From Candidatus Thorarchaeota archaeon (GTDB lineage: Archaea > Asgardarchaeota > Thorarchaeia > Thorarchaeales > Thorarchaeaceae), in assembly GCA_011364905.1 (NCBI GenBank), contig RDNZ01000016.1, positions 10,830-57,070 on the forward strand: a DNA stretch of 46,241 nt, read 5' to 3'. The position numbers and the translations under genes are program-made. This document shows, one piece after another, positions 2,533-11,178 of this stretch; position 1 is the first letter of the stretch, and the number at the start of each line of letters is the position of its first letter. The notes below the pieces were generated by a model. It worked only from the letters and a program-made list of their open reading frames with translations. It had not been told where the DNA came from and made no database searches.

Positions 2533-2967
2533 GTGAGCGAAGAAGCCAAGTTATATCCTATACGACTTGTGTGGACTGGCGGAAAGAGTGGTGATCTCAT
2601 CGTTGAAGGAAAAGTCAACATCAGAACAGGGGTTCCTTCAGGAGGCACCGATGAGGCAAAGTATCACTCTCCAGAAGACCTCTTCGTTGCATCAGCAGCA
2701 ATGTGCTACATGAACGGATTTGTTGAATTCGTAAGAAAGATGAGAATTGAGTTCAAGTCCTTTGAGTGTGATGCAGTAGGAACTCTCGAAAGAGTAGGTA
2801 GAAGTTTTGAAATGACAAAGATAGACATGAAGACAAGGGTCGTGATTGAATCAGAGGACATCCGAAAGAAGATTAACCGGGCTCTTGAGCTAGCAGCCAA
2901 GTATTGCTTTATCGGCAATAGCATGAAGTGTCCTATCTCACATGAAACTAATGTCACAATTGCATGA
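2533..2967 (+). CDS. OsmC/Ohr family protein (paralog 1)
   Basis: SPEDLFVASAAMC and KYCFIGNS two-Cys signature; start GTG 2533 or 2524. Confidence 0.85.
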   Translation: MSEEAKLYPIRLVWTGGKSGDLIVEGKVNIRTGVPSGGTDEAKYHSPEDLFVASAAMCYMNGFVEFVRKMRIEFKSFECDAVGTLERVGRSFEMTKIDMKTRVVIESEDIRKKINRALELAAKYCFIGNSMKCPISHETNVTIA

Positions 2968-3020
2968 CCAAACAAAATCCTTTTTCTATGCTGATTCTCC
3001 AGCGATTCCAAGTGATATAG

Positions 3021-3455
3021 ATGACTGATGATGTTCACGAGTACTTGGCGACTGTCAATTGGAAGCATGGCCGGATTGGAGATTTGATCATTGAAGGCAA
3101 ACCGAATGTTGAAGTGGCTACTCCTCCTGAGTTTGAGGGGCCGAAGGGAATTATCTCCCCTGAAGACCTCTTCGTAGCAGCTGCAACTTCATGCTTCATG
3201 ACAACATTCGTCACTTTTAGTAAGAAGATGCGTTTTGAGTTCAAATCATTCTCATGCGATGGTCACGGTAGGCTTGAACGGGTTGACAAGGGATTTCAAT
3301 TCACAAAACTGGTTCTGAAAACAAAAGTTTCAGTTGCTGAAGAGGATCTCTTACCAAAAGCTGAGCGAGCTCTTGATTTGGCTGGAAAATATTGCTTGGT
3401 CTCGAACAGCATGAAGTGTCCAACAGAACATGAGAACAGTGTTGTTGTTGGATAA
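3021..3455 (+). CDS. OsmC/Ohr family protein (paralog 2)
   Basis: PPEFEG, SPEDLFVAAATSC, KYCLVSNS. Confidence 0.9.
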   Translation: MTDDVHEYLATVNWKHGRIGDLIIEGKPNVEVATPPEFEGPKGIISPEDLFVAAATSCFMTTFVTFSKKMRFEFKSFSCDGHGRLERVDKGFQFTKLVLKTKVSVAEEDLLPKAERALDLAGKYCLVSNSMKCPTEHENSVVVG

Positions 3456-3487
3456 ATGAAAGGATTGGAGCGACTCCAGTCGTCCAA

Positions 3488-5959
3488 TCACTCTTTCTTT
3501 TCGACAGGAGGACGAATGTATATCACATGCTCAGTCTCAGGAAGGTTTACCTCGATGAAGACATCGTCTTTAGGTTTGCCAAAACTTAGTTTCTCAATTC
3601 CATGCATCGCTTTAAGGTCTTGAGCCCATGGTTTGAGCTTCTCAGAGATGTATGCTTCAGGTAGACCTTGTCTCAGAGAGAGGTCGTTCTCTCGTTTGAA
3701 CTTCCAGAAACCTGTGTTTGTCTGAAGCAACAAATCGGTGTGTTCAGTCAGCGATGACCGCCAGTCCTTCATAGGTTTTGGAAAGTCGTGTCTGTGAACA
3801 CCTTTCTCGTCATAGAGCTCGCGGTATATCTTGTCAGTGATGAATGGTGTCATCGGCGCGAGGGCTCGTGCAATGACCTTCAATACCTCATGTAGCGTGA
3901 ACCATGCAGACCTCTGTTCTTTATCAGTAAATGCATTGTCAGTGTTGAAGGATCTTCCCTTCACCATCTCAAGGACATGATCAGCAAAGAAATTCCATGT
4001 GAATCCGCGAATCTCAGTCGCAGGTTTATGGAAATCTAACAAGTCACACTCCGGCCCAATCCGTTCCACAAAAGCATTCGTTTCAGCAAGTATCCATTGA
4101 TCCACAGGAGTCAGTTGTTTGAAAGGAATTGGTTCTGGAATTGGGAACATTGAGATGAACCTTGCTACATTGTAGAGTTTGGTCATGAACTTGGACACAC
4201 CTGCTAGACGGTCCTCTGAGAATCTGACATCACTGCCAAGACCAGCCTCCAGTGCACCATAGATACGCATGGCATCGGCACCGTATTTCTCCACAAAGGG
4301 CATTGGCGGAGGTGAGTTGCCCTTTGACTTACTCATTGCCTCTCCCTTGTCATCTACCACATGTCCCGAAACCCACACCTCACTGAAGGCAGGCTTGCCA
4401 GTCAGCTGAAGTGTCCTGAGTAGAGAATAGTAAAGCCAAGTTCTAACGATGTCCTTTCCTTGAGGACGCATGACATTGCTGAAACCTTTCTTGAAGAGCT
4501 TCTCGTCATACATGTACCCCACAGCCTGCATTCCGCTAATAGAGGAGTCCATCCATGTGTCAAAGGTTCTATCCTCGCCTGTAAAGCCCTCCTCACTATT
4601 GCATAACGGGCATTTCTTGAAAGGTGGGTCTTCACGCCAGGGCTGGTAGTATTTTGGCACGTCAGTCAATTCTGGAACCACAGGTTTGCCGCACGATTTA
4701 CAGTACCAGATTGGTATCTCAGTCCCGTAATACCGGCGCCTGCTGACAGGCCAATCAACACTCACTCGATTGAGCCAGTCTATGAGAATCTGTCTATGAA
4801 AGTCGGGATAGAAGGGCGTATTTGCAGCAATCTTGAGAAGTTCATCAATATAGTCAGTCTGTTTCACATAATACTCATCCATCGCAATGAACTCTATGGG
4901 ACTACGACTACGCCAGCATTGTGGTGCCCTCTGAATGGTATCTTCCTGTTTGAAGAGAAGGTCCTTCTCCTTGAGATCGGCAATGATTTTCTCGCGAGCG
5001 CTTTCAATCTTCATTCCTGCGTATTTTCCTGCTGCCTCAGTCATGGTACCGTCTGTCGCAACTGCGGCGATTGGTGTCAATGCATAGTCGCGAAATGCCA
5101 TCACATCAGCTTGATCTCCGTAGCTGCAAACCATCAGTGCACCAGTTCCAAACTCCATTTGTGCAGTGGGGCTTGATATGATGGGAACTTCCAGACCAAA
5201 GATAGGTACCTTTGCAGTTTTCCCTTGATAAGATGTGTATCGTTCATCACTCGGATGAACAAACACCGCACCACATGCGCAGAGCAGCTCAGGTCTTGTG
5301 GTGGCAATCTCAAGAGGTTCTTGTCCCTCAACCTCAAAATAGAGGTAGTTGAGTTTCGTTGGACGTTCCTTGTACTCCACTTCAGCATCAGCAATTGTGG
5401 TTCCACACTCAAAACACCAGTTGTTGGGACGATAGTCACTGTACACTAGATCCTTGTTCCAAATATCTATGAACGTGGCTTGCGTGACAGCTCTGTAACG
5501 TGGACTGTCAGTGCGATAACTGCCTTCGTCCTCGTATGTGTTAAAGGCTATTCCCAGTCTCTTGAAGCTGGAGAGTGATATCCTCTCGGCTTCGTCGAGG
5601 CGTTGCTTGCACAGATGAAGAAACTCCTCTCGCGGGGTCTCATGCATATGAATTCCAAGTTCTTTTTCTACTCGAACCTCTACTGGAAGACCATTTCGAT
5701 CAATGCCAAGAGGAAAATTCACCTCAAGACCTTGCATCCGTCTGTATCGTGCAATGGTGTCTATCTGTGTATAGTGAATAACTTGACCCACATGCATCGG
5801 GCCAGAGAGATAGGGAGGAGGAGTGTCCACTGTATATAATTTCTTACCAGAGTCCATGTTGAATTCATAGGTATCCTCATTGGCCCATGCTTCAAGTAGT
5901 TCGGCCTCTGCTTCAGGCTTCCAACGTTTAGATTTAATCTTTGGTTCTAGCTTAGACAA
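3488..5959 (-). CDS. valS: Valine--tRNA ligase (archaeal type)
   Basis: DTPPPY, HVGQ (HIGH), ATTRPE, GTG, DWPVSRRRYYG, DTWMDSS, AMSKSKGN (KMSKS); likely start TTG 5959 after GGAGG. Confidence 0.93.
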   Translation of the reverse strand: MSKLEPKIKSKRWKPEAEAELLEAWANEDTYEFNMDSGKKLYTVDTPPPYLSGPMHVGQVIHYTQIDTIARYRRMQGLEVNFPLGIDRNGLPVEVRVEKELGIHMHETPREEFLHLCKQRLDEAERISLSSFKRLGIAFNTYEDEGSYRTDSPRYRAVTQATFIDIWNKDLVYSDYRPNNWCFECGTTIADAEVEYKERPTKLNYLYFEVEGQEPLEIATTRPELLCACGAVFVHPSDERYTSYQGKTAKVPIFGLEVPIISSPTAQMEFGTGALMVCSYGDQADVMAFRDYALTPIAAVATDGTMTEAAGKYAGMKIESAREKIIADLKEKDLLFKQEDTIQRAPQCWRSRSPIEFIAMDEYYVKQTDYIDELLKIAANTPFYPDFHRQILIDWLNRVSVDWPVSRRRYYGTEIPIWYCKSCGKPVVPELTDVPKYYQPWREDPPFKKCPLCNSEEGFTGEDRTFDTWMDSSISGMQAVGYMYDEKLFKKGFSNVMRPQGKDIVRTWLYYSLLRTLQLTGKPAFSEVWVSGHVVDDKGEAMSKSKGNSPPPMPFVEKYGADAMRIYGALEAGLGSDVRFSEDRLAGVSKFMTKLYNVARFISMFPIPEPIPFKQLTPVDQWILAETNAFVERIGPECDLLDFHKPATEIRGFTWNFFADHVLEMVKGRSFNTDNAFTDKEQRSAWFTLHEVLKVIARALAPMTPFITDKIYRELYDEKGVHRHDFPKPMKDWRSSLTEHTDLLLQTNTGFWKFKRENDLSLRQGLPEAYISEKLKPWAQDLKAMHGIEKLSFGKPKDDVFIEVNLPETEHVIYIRPPVEKKE

Positions 5960-7920: not shown

Positions 7921-8211
7921 ATGAAGATGTTGCTCGAGAAGATTTTTGCATCCCGCGCGCAGACCCGCGTTGTCCAGCACTTCCTAGACCGTCCAAAGGA
8001 GTTCTTCAATCTGAGTAGGTTGGCAAAGGAAACTGGGCTTGCACACTCTACGATTCATCGTGTCATGCAACCTCTTGTTGACATGGGACTGGTGAAGGAG
8101 ATTAAGGCTGGACAACAGATTAGATTGTTTATTCTTGAGACCGAAGACGACAGATCAAAGATAATCTCAGACTTTTATGCCAAAATCAGACCTCACCTTG
8201 AAACAAACTGA
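7921..8211 (+). CDS. Small winged-helix HTH protein
   Basis: FNLSRLAKETGLAHSTIHRVMQPLVDMGLV wHTH pattern. Confidence 0.75.
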   Translation: MKMLLEKIFASRAQTRVVQHFLDRPKEFFNLSRLAKETGLAHSTIHRVMQPLVDMGLVKEIKAGQQIRLFILETEDDRSKIISDFYAKIRPHLETN

Positions 8212-8286: not shown

Positions 8287-8435
8287 GCCGAGGTAGCCAA
8301 GCGGCCAACGGCGGTGGACTCAAGATCAGCTAAACATCGCTTTGACTCCTAGGAGAAATCCACTCTCGCAGGAGTACATGGGTTCGAACAACCATACGCT
8401 TCGTATGATTGGAACAAATCCCATCCTCGGCACCA
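8287..8435 (+). tRNA. tRNA-Leu(CAA) with two introns (8325-8357 at 37/38; 8388-8417 at 58/59), CCA encoded
   Basis: Acceptor GCCGAGG/CCTCGGC + A-CCA; anticodon stem GTGGA/TCCAC with CT-CAA-G|A; long variable arm; T stem ATGGG/CCCAT; both inserts have bulge-helix-bulge-like flanks. Confidence 0.9.
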
Positions 8436-8464
8436 TCCCTGTAACTAACTCTGAGTCAACTTCC

Positions 8465-8923
8465 TCATTTCCTGATACGAACTATCCTCGCACGAGTAGC
8501 TCTCACAATTTCCTCAGGGCGTATTCTGAGGAGATGATGATCTGTCCCGCCCCCTCCAATCACCTCAGACATCTCCATAACTCTTGAATCAATAAGGACA
8601 TCAGCATTTTTGATAGCTATCGGAGGGGTCCCACCAACTTCGAATCCTGTCAGATTGAGTGCCTCCTCAGGCGACGCAAGTCTGGGAGGTGCAATACCAA
8701 TGGCAGCGCCCAATCTCTTTGAACTTGCACGGTCGGTGCCATTCACGATGGCAAGAATCACTTTGTCGTCAACTACGAATACCACTGTCTTGATGATTCG
8801 TTCTGGAGGAATCCCAAGTTCTTTTGATGCAGCATCGACTGAATGAACCCGCCCCACCATGGTGAGAATTTCAGCATCTATGTTGTGTGATATTATGTAA
8901 CTCTGGAGATCCTTGTCATTCAA
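8465..8923 (-). CDS. YbaK/EbsC/ProX aminoacyl-tRNA deacylase family protein
   Basis: IIKTVV, TGFEVGGTPP, GGGG motifs. Confidence 0.88.
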   Translation of the reverse strand: MNDKDLQSYIISHNIDAEILTMVGRVHSVDAASKELGIPPERIIKTVVFVVDDKVILAIVNGTDRASSKRLGAAIGIAPPRLASPEEALNLTGFEVGGTPPIAIKNADVLIDSRVMEMSEVIGGGGTDHHLLRIRPEEIVRATRARIVRIRK

Positions 8924-8999
8924 CCACTGTCACGTCCCTGAAAACGAACGGAACTTAATCTTCAGGTTATAAACGAGTGAAACGAGTTTAATTTTCCGT

Positions 9000-9041
9000 A
9001 AAGAAAAAGAGTAGTGCTCATGTTGCTTCCAACGCGAGCAC
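9000..9041 (-). terminator. Hairpin plus U-tract ending the small-peptide operon
   Basis: Minus strand GTGCTCGCGTTG-GAAG-CAACATGAGCAC followed by TACTCTTTTTCTTT. Confidence 0.6.
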
Positions 9042-9131
9042 TTCAGCCACAGAGAGGACGCTACCATCTCTGGTCTTGTTATTCTGGGCCTCATTCGAGG
9101 ACTTCTGTACTGGCGAGTCGAACTTGACCAC
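9018..9131 (-). CDS. Small peptide 3, 37 aa (MVKFDSPVQKSSNEAQNNKTRDGSVLSVAEVLALEAT)
   Basis: GTG start 9 nt downstream of GGAGG; the SD overlaps the last codons and stop of peptide 2; ends inside the terminator hairpin. Confidence 0.55.
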   Translation of the reverse strand: MVKFDSPVQKSSNEAQNNKTRDGSVLSVAEVLALEAT

Positions 9132-9137
9132 CGAAGA

Positions 9138-9233
9138 TTACCTCCTGAAGTAAGCACGAGTGATCGCGTCAGTAGACATTCTCTTTCTGAGATGAGATTC
9201 CATGTGTCGTTTCTCAACATTAGCAAGAGCCAT
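9138..9233 (-). CDS. Small peptide 2, 31 aa (MALANVEKRHMESHLRKRMSTDAITRAYFRR)
   Basis: ATG preceded by GGAGGTAATCTC; paralogous to peptide 1 (MAL start, ST-x-A-[LI]-T-x-AY...RR end). Confidence 0.72.
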   Translation of the reverse strand: MALANVEKRHMESHLRKRMSTDAITRAYFRR

Positions 9234-9237
9234 GAGA

Positions 9238-9339
9238 TTACCTCCGATAAGTGTAGGCATAGGTCAGAGCAAAGGTCGAGACCTTCGCTTTCTCGTTCTT
9301 CAGCACTGATGTGTTTCGTGAGTTAGTTGTTAGAGCCAT
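9238..9339 (-). CDS. Small peptide 1, 33 aa (MALTTNSRNTSVLKNEKAKVSTFALTYAYTYRR)
   Basis: ATG about 33 nt downstream of a TATATATA box; paralogous to peptide 2 with synonymous codon differences. Confidence 0.72.
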   Translation of the reverse strand: MALTTNSRNTSVLKNEKAKVSTFALTYAYTYRR

Positions 9340-9371
9340 GATATTTCACAAGAATTAGTACTCAGATTTAG

Positions 9372-9379
9372 TATATATA
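9372..9379 (-). promoter_or_regulatory. TATA box of the small-peptide operon
   Basis: TATATATA at archaeal promoter spacing upstream of ATG 9339. Confidence 0.55.
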
Positions 9380-9462
9380 GCGGAGCCACTTGAGAGGGTC
9401 ACAGGACGAAGTCACATCTTGTGACTAGCAAAAGCGGTTTGTGAAAGCCTTTCAGACCCTAC

Positions 9463-11178
9463 CTACTTCTTAATCGCCTTCATCAGTTCCTTCAGATGGT
9501 AGGTGTTGATGACGTCATTCGAGGTTAACCATCCCCGGCGTGCTTGAAAGACTCCAAACTGCATGTTCTCAAGCTCTGAGATTCTATGTGCATCAGTGTT
9601 GACTGCAATCTTTAGACCCATTTTAATAGCTGCACGAAGATTACCGGCATTGAGGTCTAGTCTCTGTGGATACGCATTCAACTCCATGACTACATGGTGC
9701 TTTTGTGCGGTCTCAAAGACTCGCTCCAGATCAATTTCGAATTCTGATCGTTTCCCTATGAGACGTCCAGTAGGATGCCCTAAGATATGTACATGGCTGT
9801 TCTCCAGAGCGCGGCAGACACGTTCTGTCATGGTCCCCTTGGTGTCTTTCATCCTGCTATGAATAGACACAGTGACAACATCGAGCTGGGATAAAACGCA
9901 ATCCTCGATGTCAAGACCACCGTCCGCCAAGATGTCCACCTCTGCACCCTTCAGAATCCTCATTTTCCATCTGCCTGATGCGTTCAGTTCGTCAATCTCC
10001 TCAATCCGTTTCAGAAGGCGGCTTTCATCCATGCCATTTGCTATTGTAAGGCTTTGAGTATGGTCTGATACGCAGTAGTACTCGTAATTCAACGCCTGTG
10101 CAGCATCCAGCATCTCCTCAATCGTATTCTTGCCGTCAGATTGGTCTGTATGACTGTGAAGGTCTCCCCGAATGTCGTCCTTGGACAGCAGAGCAGGAAG
10201 CTCTCCTCGTTGTGCGGCCTCAATCTCGCCTTTGTCTTCTCTCAGCTCAGGAGGTACCCATTGGAGTCCAAGTGTTTTGTAGATGCCCTCTTCATCCTCG
10301 CCTGCTACTTTCTTCTCGCCTTTGAAGAGACCATATTCATTGAGACGCAACCCCATTTTTTGAGCAATCGATCGTATTCTGACATTATGGTCCACGCTAC
10401 CAGTGAAGTATTGAAGACCAGCACCGAAACTATCATCGGGCAAAACTCGAAGGTCCACTTGCAGACCAGAGCCCAAACGCACTGACGATTTTGTGGGTCC
10501 TTGAGCCTGAATCGAGGAAACTCCATCGGACTTGACAAAGGCGGCCATAACAGCCTCGGGATCCGTTGCAACCACCAGAATGTCAAGGTCTCCGATGGTT
10601 TCTCTTCGCCGACGAGTTGATCCAGCAATCTCAAGTTTTTTGATGACCTTTAGTTTACGGAGTGCATTCTCTATTCCCTCAGCAGCCAGCATGGCATCAG
10701 CAAGAAGCGTTCTTTCGAGTCCAGCTCGAACAACCTTGATTCCCTCAATGATTTGAATTTGGGTTTTTTCACCAAGACCTGGAAGACCAGAGAGTTTCCC
10801 CTCGTTTGCAGTTCGTTCCAGTGACTCGAGGTCTGTCACACCAAGCTTGTCGTACACAAGTTTGATGGTCTTCGGACCCACGCCTGGGATTGAGTCAAGC
10901 TCAAGGGCTTTTACTGGAACACGTGTTCTGAGCTCCGTAAGAAGCTCCACCTCTCCAGTTTCCAGGTACTGCTTGATAACTTCTGAGAGGCCCTTTCCAA
11001 TACCCGGAATGTCTGTGAGCGCATCCCGTTTGGCTATGGTCTCAACATCCTCTCCCAGGGATGCTATGGACCTCACACCACGATAATATGCAAGAGGCTT
11101 GAACTTGTCTTTGCCCTCGATTTCTAAGAGCAGACCAATCTCTTTCAGAACACGAGCCACCTCAGCATTCTTGGTCAT
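9463..11178 (-). CDS. polX: DNA polymerase X / PHP-domain 3'-5' exonuclease
   Basis: HhH motifs IPGIG and IPGVGPKT; GSTRRRRETIGDLD; YFTGS; PHP motifs DLHSHT..SDG, DH, HPTGR, NTDAH. Confidence 0.95.
   Translation of the reverse strand: MTKNAEVARVLKEIGLLLEIEGKDKFKPLAYYRGVRSIASLGEDVETIAKRDALTDIPGIGKGLSEVIKQYLETGEVELLTELRTRVPVKALELDSIPGVGPKTIKLVYDKLGVTDLESLERTANEGKLSGLPGLGEKTQIQIIEGIKVVRAGLERTLLADAMLAAEGIENALRKLKVIKKLEIAGSTRRRRETIGDLDILVVATDPEAVMAAFVKSDGVSSIQAQGPTKSSVRLGSGLQVDLRVLPDDSFGAGLQYFTGSVDHNVRIRSIAQKMGLRLNEYGLFKGEKKVAGEDEEGIYKTLGLQWVPPELREDKGEIEAAQRGELPALLSKDDIRGDLHSHTDQSDGKNTIEEMLDAAQALNYEYYCVSDHTQSLTIANGMDESRLLKRIEEIDELNASGRWKMRILKGAEVDILADGGLDIEDCVLSQLDVVTVSIHSRMKDTKGTMTERVCRALENSHVHILGHPTGRLIGKRSEFEIDLERVFETAQKHHVVMELNAYPQRLDLNAGNLRAAIKMGLKIAVNTDAHRISELENMQFGVFQARRGWLTSNDVINTYHLKELMKAIKK

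Follow-up and report, generated by a model that had tools for sequence, protein, structure and literature searches.

The window analysed here, a 46,241-nt stretch of DNA from Candidatus Thorarchaeota archaeon (contig RDNZ01000016.1, positions 10,830 to 57,070 of the forward strand), contains a 539-bp gap between polX (9463–11178), which encodes PolX and PHP domains, and ybaK (8465–8923), a YbaK-type tRNA-editing gene. The gap is occupied by a minus-strand unit of three small open reading frames (ORFs), here called P1, P2 and P3, on the same strand as ybaK. P1 (9339–9238, minus strand) encodes a peptide of 33 amino acids with a charge of +5 and the C-terminal motif S-T-x-A-L-T-x-A-Y-x-Y-R-R; P2 (9233–9138, minus strand), a paralog of P1, encodes 31 amino acids, again with a charge of +5, and carries the motif S-T-D-A-I-T-R-A-Y-F-R-R; P3 (9131–9018, minus strand) encodes an acidic peptide of 37 amino acids and starts with GTG in this copy and with ATG in most relatives. 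A sequence-only reading of this DNA had described such a minus-strand unit, led by TATATATA at 9379–9372, and all of these elements are present. What occupies the gap is one of several copies of a lineage-specific transcription unit.

The three ORFs are chained by their translation signals. Both junctions consist of the same 11-mer, GGAGGTAATCT (9245–9235 and 9145–9135, minus strand), which occurs twice at a spacing of exactly 100 nt; the first copy comprises the last Arg codons and stop of P1 together with the Shine–Dalgarno (SD) sequence of P2, and the second comprises the last Arg codons and stop of P2 together with the SD of P3, so that the terminal Arg codons of both peptides also serve as the SD for the following ORF. 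The 16S rRNA of the same genome ends in ...GGATCACCTCCT, with which the junctions pair at 10 of 11 positions (exact run of 6), making them near-perfect SD sequences. An SD run of at least 5 nt precedes only 3 of the 45 long ORFs of the window, a rough count with uncurated start codons. Successive ORFs are separated by 4–6 nt. The twin junctions with their single mismatch to the anti-SD complement, and the SD chaining that they imply, had both been pointed out from the letters, and the comparison with the organism's own 16S rRNA bears them out.

The unit is repeated within the genome and throughout its lineage. A 400-nt segment recurs in the same genome with 91% identity over 388 nt and in part at two further places, and a whole-genome census by motif and hidden Markov model found six loci with about 13 peptides. 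A search of 24 other genomes of the genus by DNA similarity found the unit in every one, at 3–8 places in each; this, with the 91%-identity copy, places it far beyond chance. The search for the motif family across Asgard genomes that the sequence-only reading had suggested was run as a profile of P1 and P2: within the taxonomic family, 71 of the 76 genomes gave matches, whereas the 225 genomes that represent 29 other families of the phylum gave none. The carriers are Candidatus Thorarchaeota metagenome-assembled genomes, for example SMTZ1-45 and AB_25, with 1–13 profile matches per positive genome (3–11 within the genus) and 4–8 arrays per genome under one common promoter. In other genera of the family the module is recognizable as operator, TATA box, P1 and P2, followed by P3 and a hairpin or by a pump gene. 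The polX-adjacent locus is syntenic in at least ten species, and one genome carries three near-identical P1–P2–P3 arrays (L158, L159 and L169).

Searches of curated collections were empty, in agreement with the earlier statement that no known family could be recognized. Pfam, NCBIfam, PHROGs and PADLOC gave no match for the peptides except a sub-threshold U-box (E = 0.19), a feature search of the ESM Atlas gave no usable match, profile searches of the PDB returned chance matches only (E >= 0.3) and a full-text search of the literature found nothing on the peptide family. Among 1.84 billion representative proteins, the profile search found only 45 clusters, all of tiny proteins save one; the exception, a protein of 229 amino acids (P0026) with six tandem repeats of about 17 residues containing S-T-D-A-L-F (E = 8e-5), is most likely a chance match boosted by repetition. 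An origin from a virus or mobile element was considered and rejected, the two IMG/VR matches being to a 20-nt pattern inside ordinary phage genes and thus due to chance; three bacterial matches in the genome collection have the same look. The P1/P2 family appears to be undescribed.

To assess coding status, we compared 24 copies of P1, 17 of P2 and 17 of P3 from loci 72–92% identical in DNA. For P1, the ratio of nonsynonymous to synonymous substitution (dN/dS) was 0.44 in frame against 1.10 and 1.28 in the two shifted frames, and stops numbered 0 in frame against 69 and 38; for P2 the corresponding ratios were 0.23 against 1.09 and 1.17, with 0 stops against 18 and 40. Most change in both falls at third codon positions, and length differences are in frame, also across loci only 72–82% identical. 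No internal stop was found among those listed of the 466 matches in 72 genomes. Constraint is not confined to the C terminus, since the first half of P2 has a dN/dS of 0.24. Given the frame-specific dN/dS, the open frames and the in-frame insertions and deletions, P1 and P2 are real protein-coding genes. Selection on the peptide had been proposed from five synonymous codon differences at residues common to P1 and P2; these differences are as described, and the comparison of orthologous loci, in which the P1 and P2 frames are kept free of stops, points the same way.

P1 and P2 are small, basic and hydrophilic, with charges of +5 to +6, an isoelectric point (pI) of about 10.5 and a grand average of hydropathy (GRAVY) of −0.64. 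They contain no Cys and very little Gly or Pro; P1 lacks Trp, and P2 has next to none. The family motif near the C terminus is S-T-[DE]-A-[LI]-x-x-A-Y, followed by one to four residues and Arg. Across P1 and P2, M1, A2, the motif Thr and the Ala that follows it are invariant, and the Ser and the later Ala occur in at least 90%; conservation peaks in the last 12–13 residues, with a motif-to-stop distance that varies by one or two residues. For P1, AlphaFold2 given the alignment of the family predicts a single helix (residues 6–31), with a mean predicted local distance difference test score (pLDDT) of 73 and a peak of 84 over the conserved motif. A predicted complex of P1, P2 and P3 scored 0.02, which, with controls not run, speaks neither for nor against binding. 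An oligo-dT sediment RNA library contained 5% of the sampled words, and three of its contigs, at 90–95% identity, cover 9297–9433 only, the conserved part near the promoter; they derive from relatives' copies and include sequence 5′ of the TATA box, so they are uninformative about a transcript of the window.

P3 stands apart. The sequence-only reading had counted it with P1 and P2 in a duplicated family of tiny basic peptides, which holds for the first two; P3 is no member, being acidic (charge about −1.6, pI about 5.8) and having an N-terminal dN/dS of 0.61. Its frame is open in every copy, always with an SD and a start codon, and stops number 0 in frame against 30 and 71 in the shifted frames, but its in-frame dN/dS of 0.54 hardly differs from the 0.56 of one shifted frame (the other gives 1.45), and the constraint lies in the last 12 codons (0.29). 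These last codons form a hairpin. At 9042–9013 (minus strand) the last eight codons of P3, its stop codon and five further bases fold into a G+C-rich stem of 13–15 bp with a 4-nt loop (−18.7 kcal/mol, z = −2.5), directly followed by a U-run, TCTTTTTCTTT (9010–9000, minus strand), which probably marks the transcript end; nearly all copies have a T-run after the hairpin. A hairpin and U-tract had been noted before and are indeed there, although placed after P3, whereas the stem is built from the end of P3 itself.

The pairing is under selection at the RNA level. Among 34 copies, 85.5% of cells are paired, against 23–47% with slid partners, and compensatory cells number 26 against 8.9 in shuffles, none of 500 shuffles reaching as high. 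The change from GTG/GCAC to GTA/GTAC keeps Val, and that from CTC/TGA to CTT/TAA keeps Leu and the stop: the compensatory changes obey both codes, that of the peptide and that of the RNA. Taken over its full length, the transcript shows no unusual degree of structure (z = −0.65), no other helix has convincing covariation, Rfam 15 gave no match up to E = 10 over positions 8700–9700, and ARAGORN called just two tRNAs, both unrelated. In stem length, G+C content, loop, U-run and compensatory changes the element resembles intrinsic-terminator-like hairpins, from which it differs in that its stem is made of conserved codons of a translated ORF. Termination in archaea is generally ascribed to U-tracts and factor-dependent cleavage and not to hairpins, so the stem may act here as a stabilizer of the 3′ end. 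It provides an example of dual coding in which eight codons and a stop codon double as a covarying RNA hairpin. With an open frame, an SD and a start on the one hand, and weak dN/dS and constrained codons that coincide with the hairpin on the other, P3 is best described as a putatively translated ORF whose product is probably of little weight and whose 3′ end is an RNA element.

Three further ideas about P3 were tried and rejected. A relic of a pump N terminus is not indicated (hhalign probability 0.1). Programmed read-through of the P2 stop is unlikely, as the stop varies among TAA, TAG and TGA and the 6-nt in-frame spacing is not universal. Five database proteins of 70–73 amino acids (P0003, P0016, P0033, P0038 and P0039; loci L145 and L146) look like ‘Rosetta-stone’ fusions of P2 and P3 with Gln at the P2 stop. 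In the two checked at the DNA level this Gln is TAG, and they translate only if TAG is read as Gln, which makes them artefacts of gene calling under an alternative code on short contigs. Public protein sets thus hold false P2–P3 fusion proteins, a practical warning.

Upstream of P1 lies a composite promoter. A palindromic, operator-like sequence, GTCACA-N3-TGTGAC (9425–9411, minus strand), forms the upstream edge of the sequence common to all copies. It is followed by a third half-site, TGTGACC, within CCTGTGACCC (9405–9396, minus strand), whose position is kept in all arrays with the common promoter, and by GTGGCTCCGC and the consensus TATA box TATATATA (together 9389–9372, minus strand). A conserved TTGTGAAATATC (9351–9340, minus strand) without an SD directly precedes the P1 ATG. 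From the TATA-to-ATG distance and the usual archaeal spacing between TATA box and start, transcription is predicted to begin about 10 nt 5′ of the ATG, giving a very short leader without an SD. The promoter stretch is the best-conserved DNA of the unit, at 80–91% identity even where the downstream ORFs differ, and homology between copies starts abruptly at the palindrome and runs to the ATG.

The genome has five such palindromes, each scored on both strands, four of them upstream of peptide arrays, and the site is kept across genera; the composite motif likewise occurs five times in 3.08 Mb, four times before P1-type ORFs and once before a bactofilin-like gene. Among the fetched loci, 109 of 110 composite motifs precede a P1-type ORF, a proportion biased by the fact that the loci were fetched by P1. 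The bactofilin-like gene (in L154:2120-3071, contig C10:61119-62070; weak Pfam match, E = 2.5e-4; truncated at the contig end) is alone among the genome's non-peptide genes in lying behind this promoter. A winged-helix gene of 108 amino acids (HTH_45; L154:2120-2443) ends about 30 nt 5′ of the palindrome at that locus and is a possible candidate for the regulator. As a transcription-factor gene recurring beside the arrays it was rejected, having no homolog in any fetched array locus.

What follows the peptides varies, as seen from neighbour clustering and inspection of array ends in 77 arrays. About 30% end in P3 and the hairpin, as in the window. In about 20%, a major facilitator superfamily (MFS) transporter of 446–456 amino acids starts 5 nt past the stop of the last peptide, and in about another 20% a second MFS protein, of 520–570 amino acids, lies downstream beyond further small ORFs, which brings the share of examined arrays with an MFS efflux pump after the last peptide to roughly 40%. 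The directly coupled pump matches the model for DHA3 drug:H+ antiporters (TIGR00900, 3e-64) as well as Pfam MFS_3 and, more weakly, EntS, Mef(A/B/C), Tet(V) and Tap. It occupies the exact position of P3, 5 nt after the P2 stop, with its SD inside the last peptide codons. In the genome analysed here, the array on contig C17 is coupled to a DHA3 pump, that on C78 precedes the second MFS gene and those on C11 (the window), C53 and C23 end in P3; pump coupling is also seen in another genus (L164). Next to polX in the orthologous loci, the array faces a convergent, intron-containing tRNA gene and does not precede a co-directional one; further P3-type arrays likewise run towards a gene on the opposite strand (cluster 10). 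Among neighbour clusters, the leading ones are MFS, GNAT, 3-hydroxyacyl-CoA dehydrogenase, hydrolases, flavodoxin, F420 ligase and PolX.

Some features around the arrays deserve mention in their own right. In arrays whose first peptide ends in T-V-V-R (L148 at C78:64500-69500, L147 at C17:29000-33500, L037, L046, L067, L073 and L103), a spacer of about 150 nt follows, with repeated GGTCACAG / CTGTGACC half-sites and a second start context of the TTGTGAAAT type. These elements may represent a second promoter inside the array or an RNA helix that pairs over a long range, and the spacer also contains a conserved open frame of about 40 amino acids. Between the array and the gene for the 520–570-residue MFS protein, L148 (about 2650–3700, minus strand) and homologous parts of L046, L067, L080 and L103 hold conserved small ORFs of about 40–55 amino acids, one with a V-Q-S-F-G-A-L-C-N-A-G segment. 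In the window itself, ybaK (8465–8923) sits between the peptide unit and the tRNA and is absent there from most orthologous polX loci of the genus, pointing to local insertion or loss. The intron-containing tRNA that had been reported at 8287–8436 receives no ARAGORN call; the peptide strand of relatives carries the reverse complement of a tRNA 3′ end at the matching position, which puts the tRNA on the plus strand, converging on the peptide unit. Beside it, at 7921–8211, lies a gene for a winged-helix regulator of 96 amino acids (matches to IclR/MarR/TrmB-like HTH), for which no link to the peptide promoter was seen.

Taken together, these features lead us to favour, at roughly even chances, a reading in which P1 and P2 are trans-acting small basic proteins, made at high dosage as part of a pump-linked stress regulon. 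One transcription factor would switch the regulon through the common operator as a response to xenobiotics or stress that is linked to efflux. P1 and P2 would then act in trans as stoichiometric, high-dosage effectors, their conserved C-terminal helix binding a common intracellular target; nucleic acid or the ribosome, the transcription factor of the regulon itself, and the pumps are candidates. P3 would mainly bring ribosomes into the 3′ hairpin and form the transcript end, and the copy in the window would be a stand-alone dosage copy and not a regulator of ybaK. Action in trans is favoured because stand-alone terminated arrays are conserved and duplicated and because purifying selection spans the whole peptides. 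Where arrays converge on a tRNA or an opposite-strand gene, there is nothing downstream to regulate, and the covarying hairpin and U-tract at the end of P3-type arrays also support action in trans over action in cis. With 8–13 gene copies that carry strong signals, a bulk effector seems likelier than a regulator or a cis element, and the three near-identical arrays of one genome indicate selection on dosage.

Several points weigh against this interpretation. The conserved N-terminal codons of P1 show fewer synonymous changes than the rest (proportion of synonymous differences, pS, 0.32 against 0.56), so some of what looks like peptide conservation is nucleotide constraint, and the final Arg-Arg of the peptides is at least partly set by the overlapping SD. 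We infer strong translation of P1 and P2 from the signals only, and the target of the peptides is a guess. The 5′ end of efflux-pump operons is a classic place of regulatory leader peptides, and with ybaK on the same strand, starting only 95 nt past P3, read-through control is possible for the copy in the window.

These last points lead to the alternative that survives best, although we hold it unlikely: P1 and P2 could be cis-acting regulatory leader peptides, nascent-chain sensors whose C-terminal dozen residues arrest or slow the ribosome at or near the stop and so set translation of P2, P3 or the pump, possibly on sensing a small-molecule substrate of the pump. The precedents are bacterial. 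mef(E) is under the control of a leader peptide, Mef(E)L, encoded before mef(E)/mel (PMC4335068), and SpeFL, a peptide of 34 amino acids, arrests at its own stop codon before speF-potE (10.1101/604074). Like these, the peptides of the pump-coupled arrays are encoded by short ORFs at the 5′ end of transporter operons, with the pump SD inside the last peptide codons and the pump start 5 nt past the stop; the coupled pump lies in the DHA3 group, which includes the Mef pumps, and P1 and P2 are similar in length to SpeFL and, like it, basic. The strongest conservation falls in the last 12–13 residues, the overlap of stop and SD would make any termination pause directly regulatory, and a ribosome translating P3 must melt the terminal hairpin. 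The upstream-ORF arrangement of leader peptides is, however, found in the pump-coupled paralogs, whereas arrays of the window type have the hairpin and U-tract next, and stand-alone terminated arrays with no co-directional downstream gene are kept across genera and duplicated. In the bacterial systems, a single leader ORF is separated from the gene it regulates by an attenuator or Rho site; here, two or three paralogous ORFs are chained by SD–stop overlap, with no attenuator and many stand-alone copies. With 4–6 nt between ORFs, the interval between P2 and the pump is too short for an attenuator, no covarying alternative structure was found besides the terminal hairpin, and a ribosome stalled at the stop would cover the pump start and not induce the pump. 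A pure arrest motif also fits poorly with purifying selection over the whole length, N-terminal halves included, and with a motif-to-stop distance that shifts by one or two residues.

A specific form of this alternative, which we regard as a long shot, is that P1 and P2 are the first archaeal ribosome-arrest peptides, in which a small-molecule-triggered stall over the stop/SD overlap gates the chained ORFs and the DHA3 pumps; to our knowledge, no arrest peptide has been described in archaea. If it were true, the stand-alone P1–P2–P3 copies would be ribosome-borne sensors, with translation deciding whether the 3′ hairpin forms.

Scarcely more probable than such specific forms, and a little behind cis-acting leaders, are exported cationic peptides. 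Here P1 and P2 would be antimicrobial or signalling peptides akin to leaderless bacteriocins, the MFS protein would provide export or self-protection, and P3 would be an accessory or immunity protein. Leaderless bacteriocin operons such as those of aureocin A70, garvicin KS and the cereucins encode peptides with a pI of 10–11 and a charge of +4 to +5 (PMC6131525), and their plan of three or four tandem genes for homologous cationic peptides of about 30 residues in one operon, followed by transport or immunity genes, is reminiscent of the arrays, in which tandem homologous peptides of this kind, with neither signal nor leader, are translationally coupled and in many loci followed by a transporter. 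Size and charge ranges agree with those of aureocin A70 and garvicin KS (PMC6131525, Table 2). Hydropathy separates the two: the known peptides are hydrophobic and often Trp-rich (GRAVY +0.4 to +0.7; PMC6131525), whereas P1 and P2 are hydrophilic (GRAVY −0.64) and lack Trp, which argues against membrane-active peptides. Distribution separates them too, in that those bacteriocins are patchy accessory genes of single strains or plasmids, and the arrays, at 4–8 loci per genome, are near-universal and syntenic across the taxonomic family, which argues against an accessory trait of that kind. The leaderless bacteriocins use ABC-type export, whereas the transporters linked here are MFS drug:H+ antiporters, whose known substrates are small molecules. 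The ABC export and immunity genes are not among the neighbours, which are polX and ybaK at this locus and MFS pumps elsewhere, and searches of Pfam, NCBIfam and the protein-cluster profiles found no similarity to any bacteriocin.

By analogy with ArmR of Pseudomonas aeruginosa, P1 and P2 might instead be anti-repressors, their C-terminal helix inserting into the operator-binding factor as ArmR does into MexR, with feed-forward on peptides and pumps; we consider this improbable. With its C-terminal part, ArmR, a protein of 53 amino acids, binds a MarR-family repressor that controls an efflux operon (PMC6018408). The likeness, a small protein with a short functional C-terminal segment in an efflux-pump control circuit, is matched here by a conserved peptide part that is a short C-terminal helix, and a single conserved operator stands before all arrays, pump-carrying ones included. 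A regulator, however, needs no 8–13 gene copies with strong translation signals, and no transcription-factor gene recurs beside the arrays. Unlike P1 and P2, ArmR is encoded in single copy under a separate TetR-type repressor and not in an array, and it shares no similarity with the peptides.

Still further down the scale, and very improbable in our estimate, are precursors of ribosomally synthesized and post-translationally modified peptides (RiPPs) or of a cofactor, modified by enzymes encoded elsewhere to give a small product exported by the MFS pump. Such precursors would suit the presence of several precursor-like copies in each genome, the positions at which Ser, Thr, Ala and Tyr do not vary, and the MFS pumps adjoining some loci. 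Yet no radical SAM, YcaO, ATP-grasp or peptidase cluster recurs among the neighbours of the arrays, which extends the earlier observation that no modifying enzyme adjoins the unit; there is no Cys, no division into leader and core and no cleavage motif, and purifying selection covers the whole length. RiPP classes independent of Cys keep some small probability, given the Ser, Thr and Tyr residues. The RiPP-like precursors floated in the sequence-only reading thus gained no support, either from a composition that lacks Cys and Trp and is nearly free of Gly and Pro or from neighbourhoods with no recurrent maturase. Least credible of all is a non-coding RNA or promoter-only element with incidental ORFs, which would account for the high conservation of promoter and first codons, the RNA-level selection on the 3′ hairpin and the lack of a frame-specific dN/dS signal in P3, but is countered by the frame-specific purifying selection on P1 and P2 with in-frame insertions and deletions and frames without internal stops, and by a transcript that matches no Rfam family, is not unusually stable and shows no covariation outside the terminal hairpin.

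We know of no cultured member of the lineage. The peptides are short enough for chemical synthesis and hence for binding, antimicrobial and ribosome assays, and the arrays offer a testable regulon with one operator and a defined target set. Asgard archaea are the closest known relatives of eukaryotes, and nothing in archaeal genomes has been charted less than their small proteins. To these the unit in the polX–ybaK gap adds a set of microproteins, about 30 residues long and multicopy across the taxonomic family, with their own operator-promoter, chained translation signals and a recurrent physical link to drug:H+ antiporters, which routine annotation has missed.

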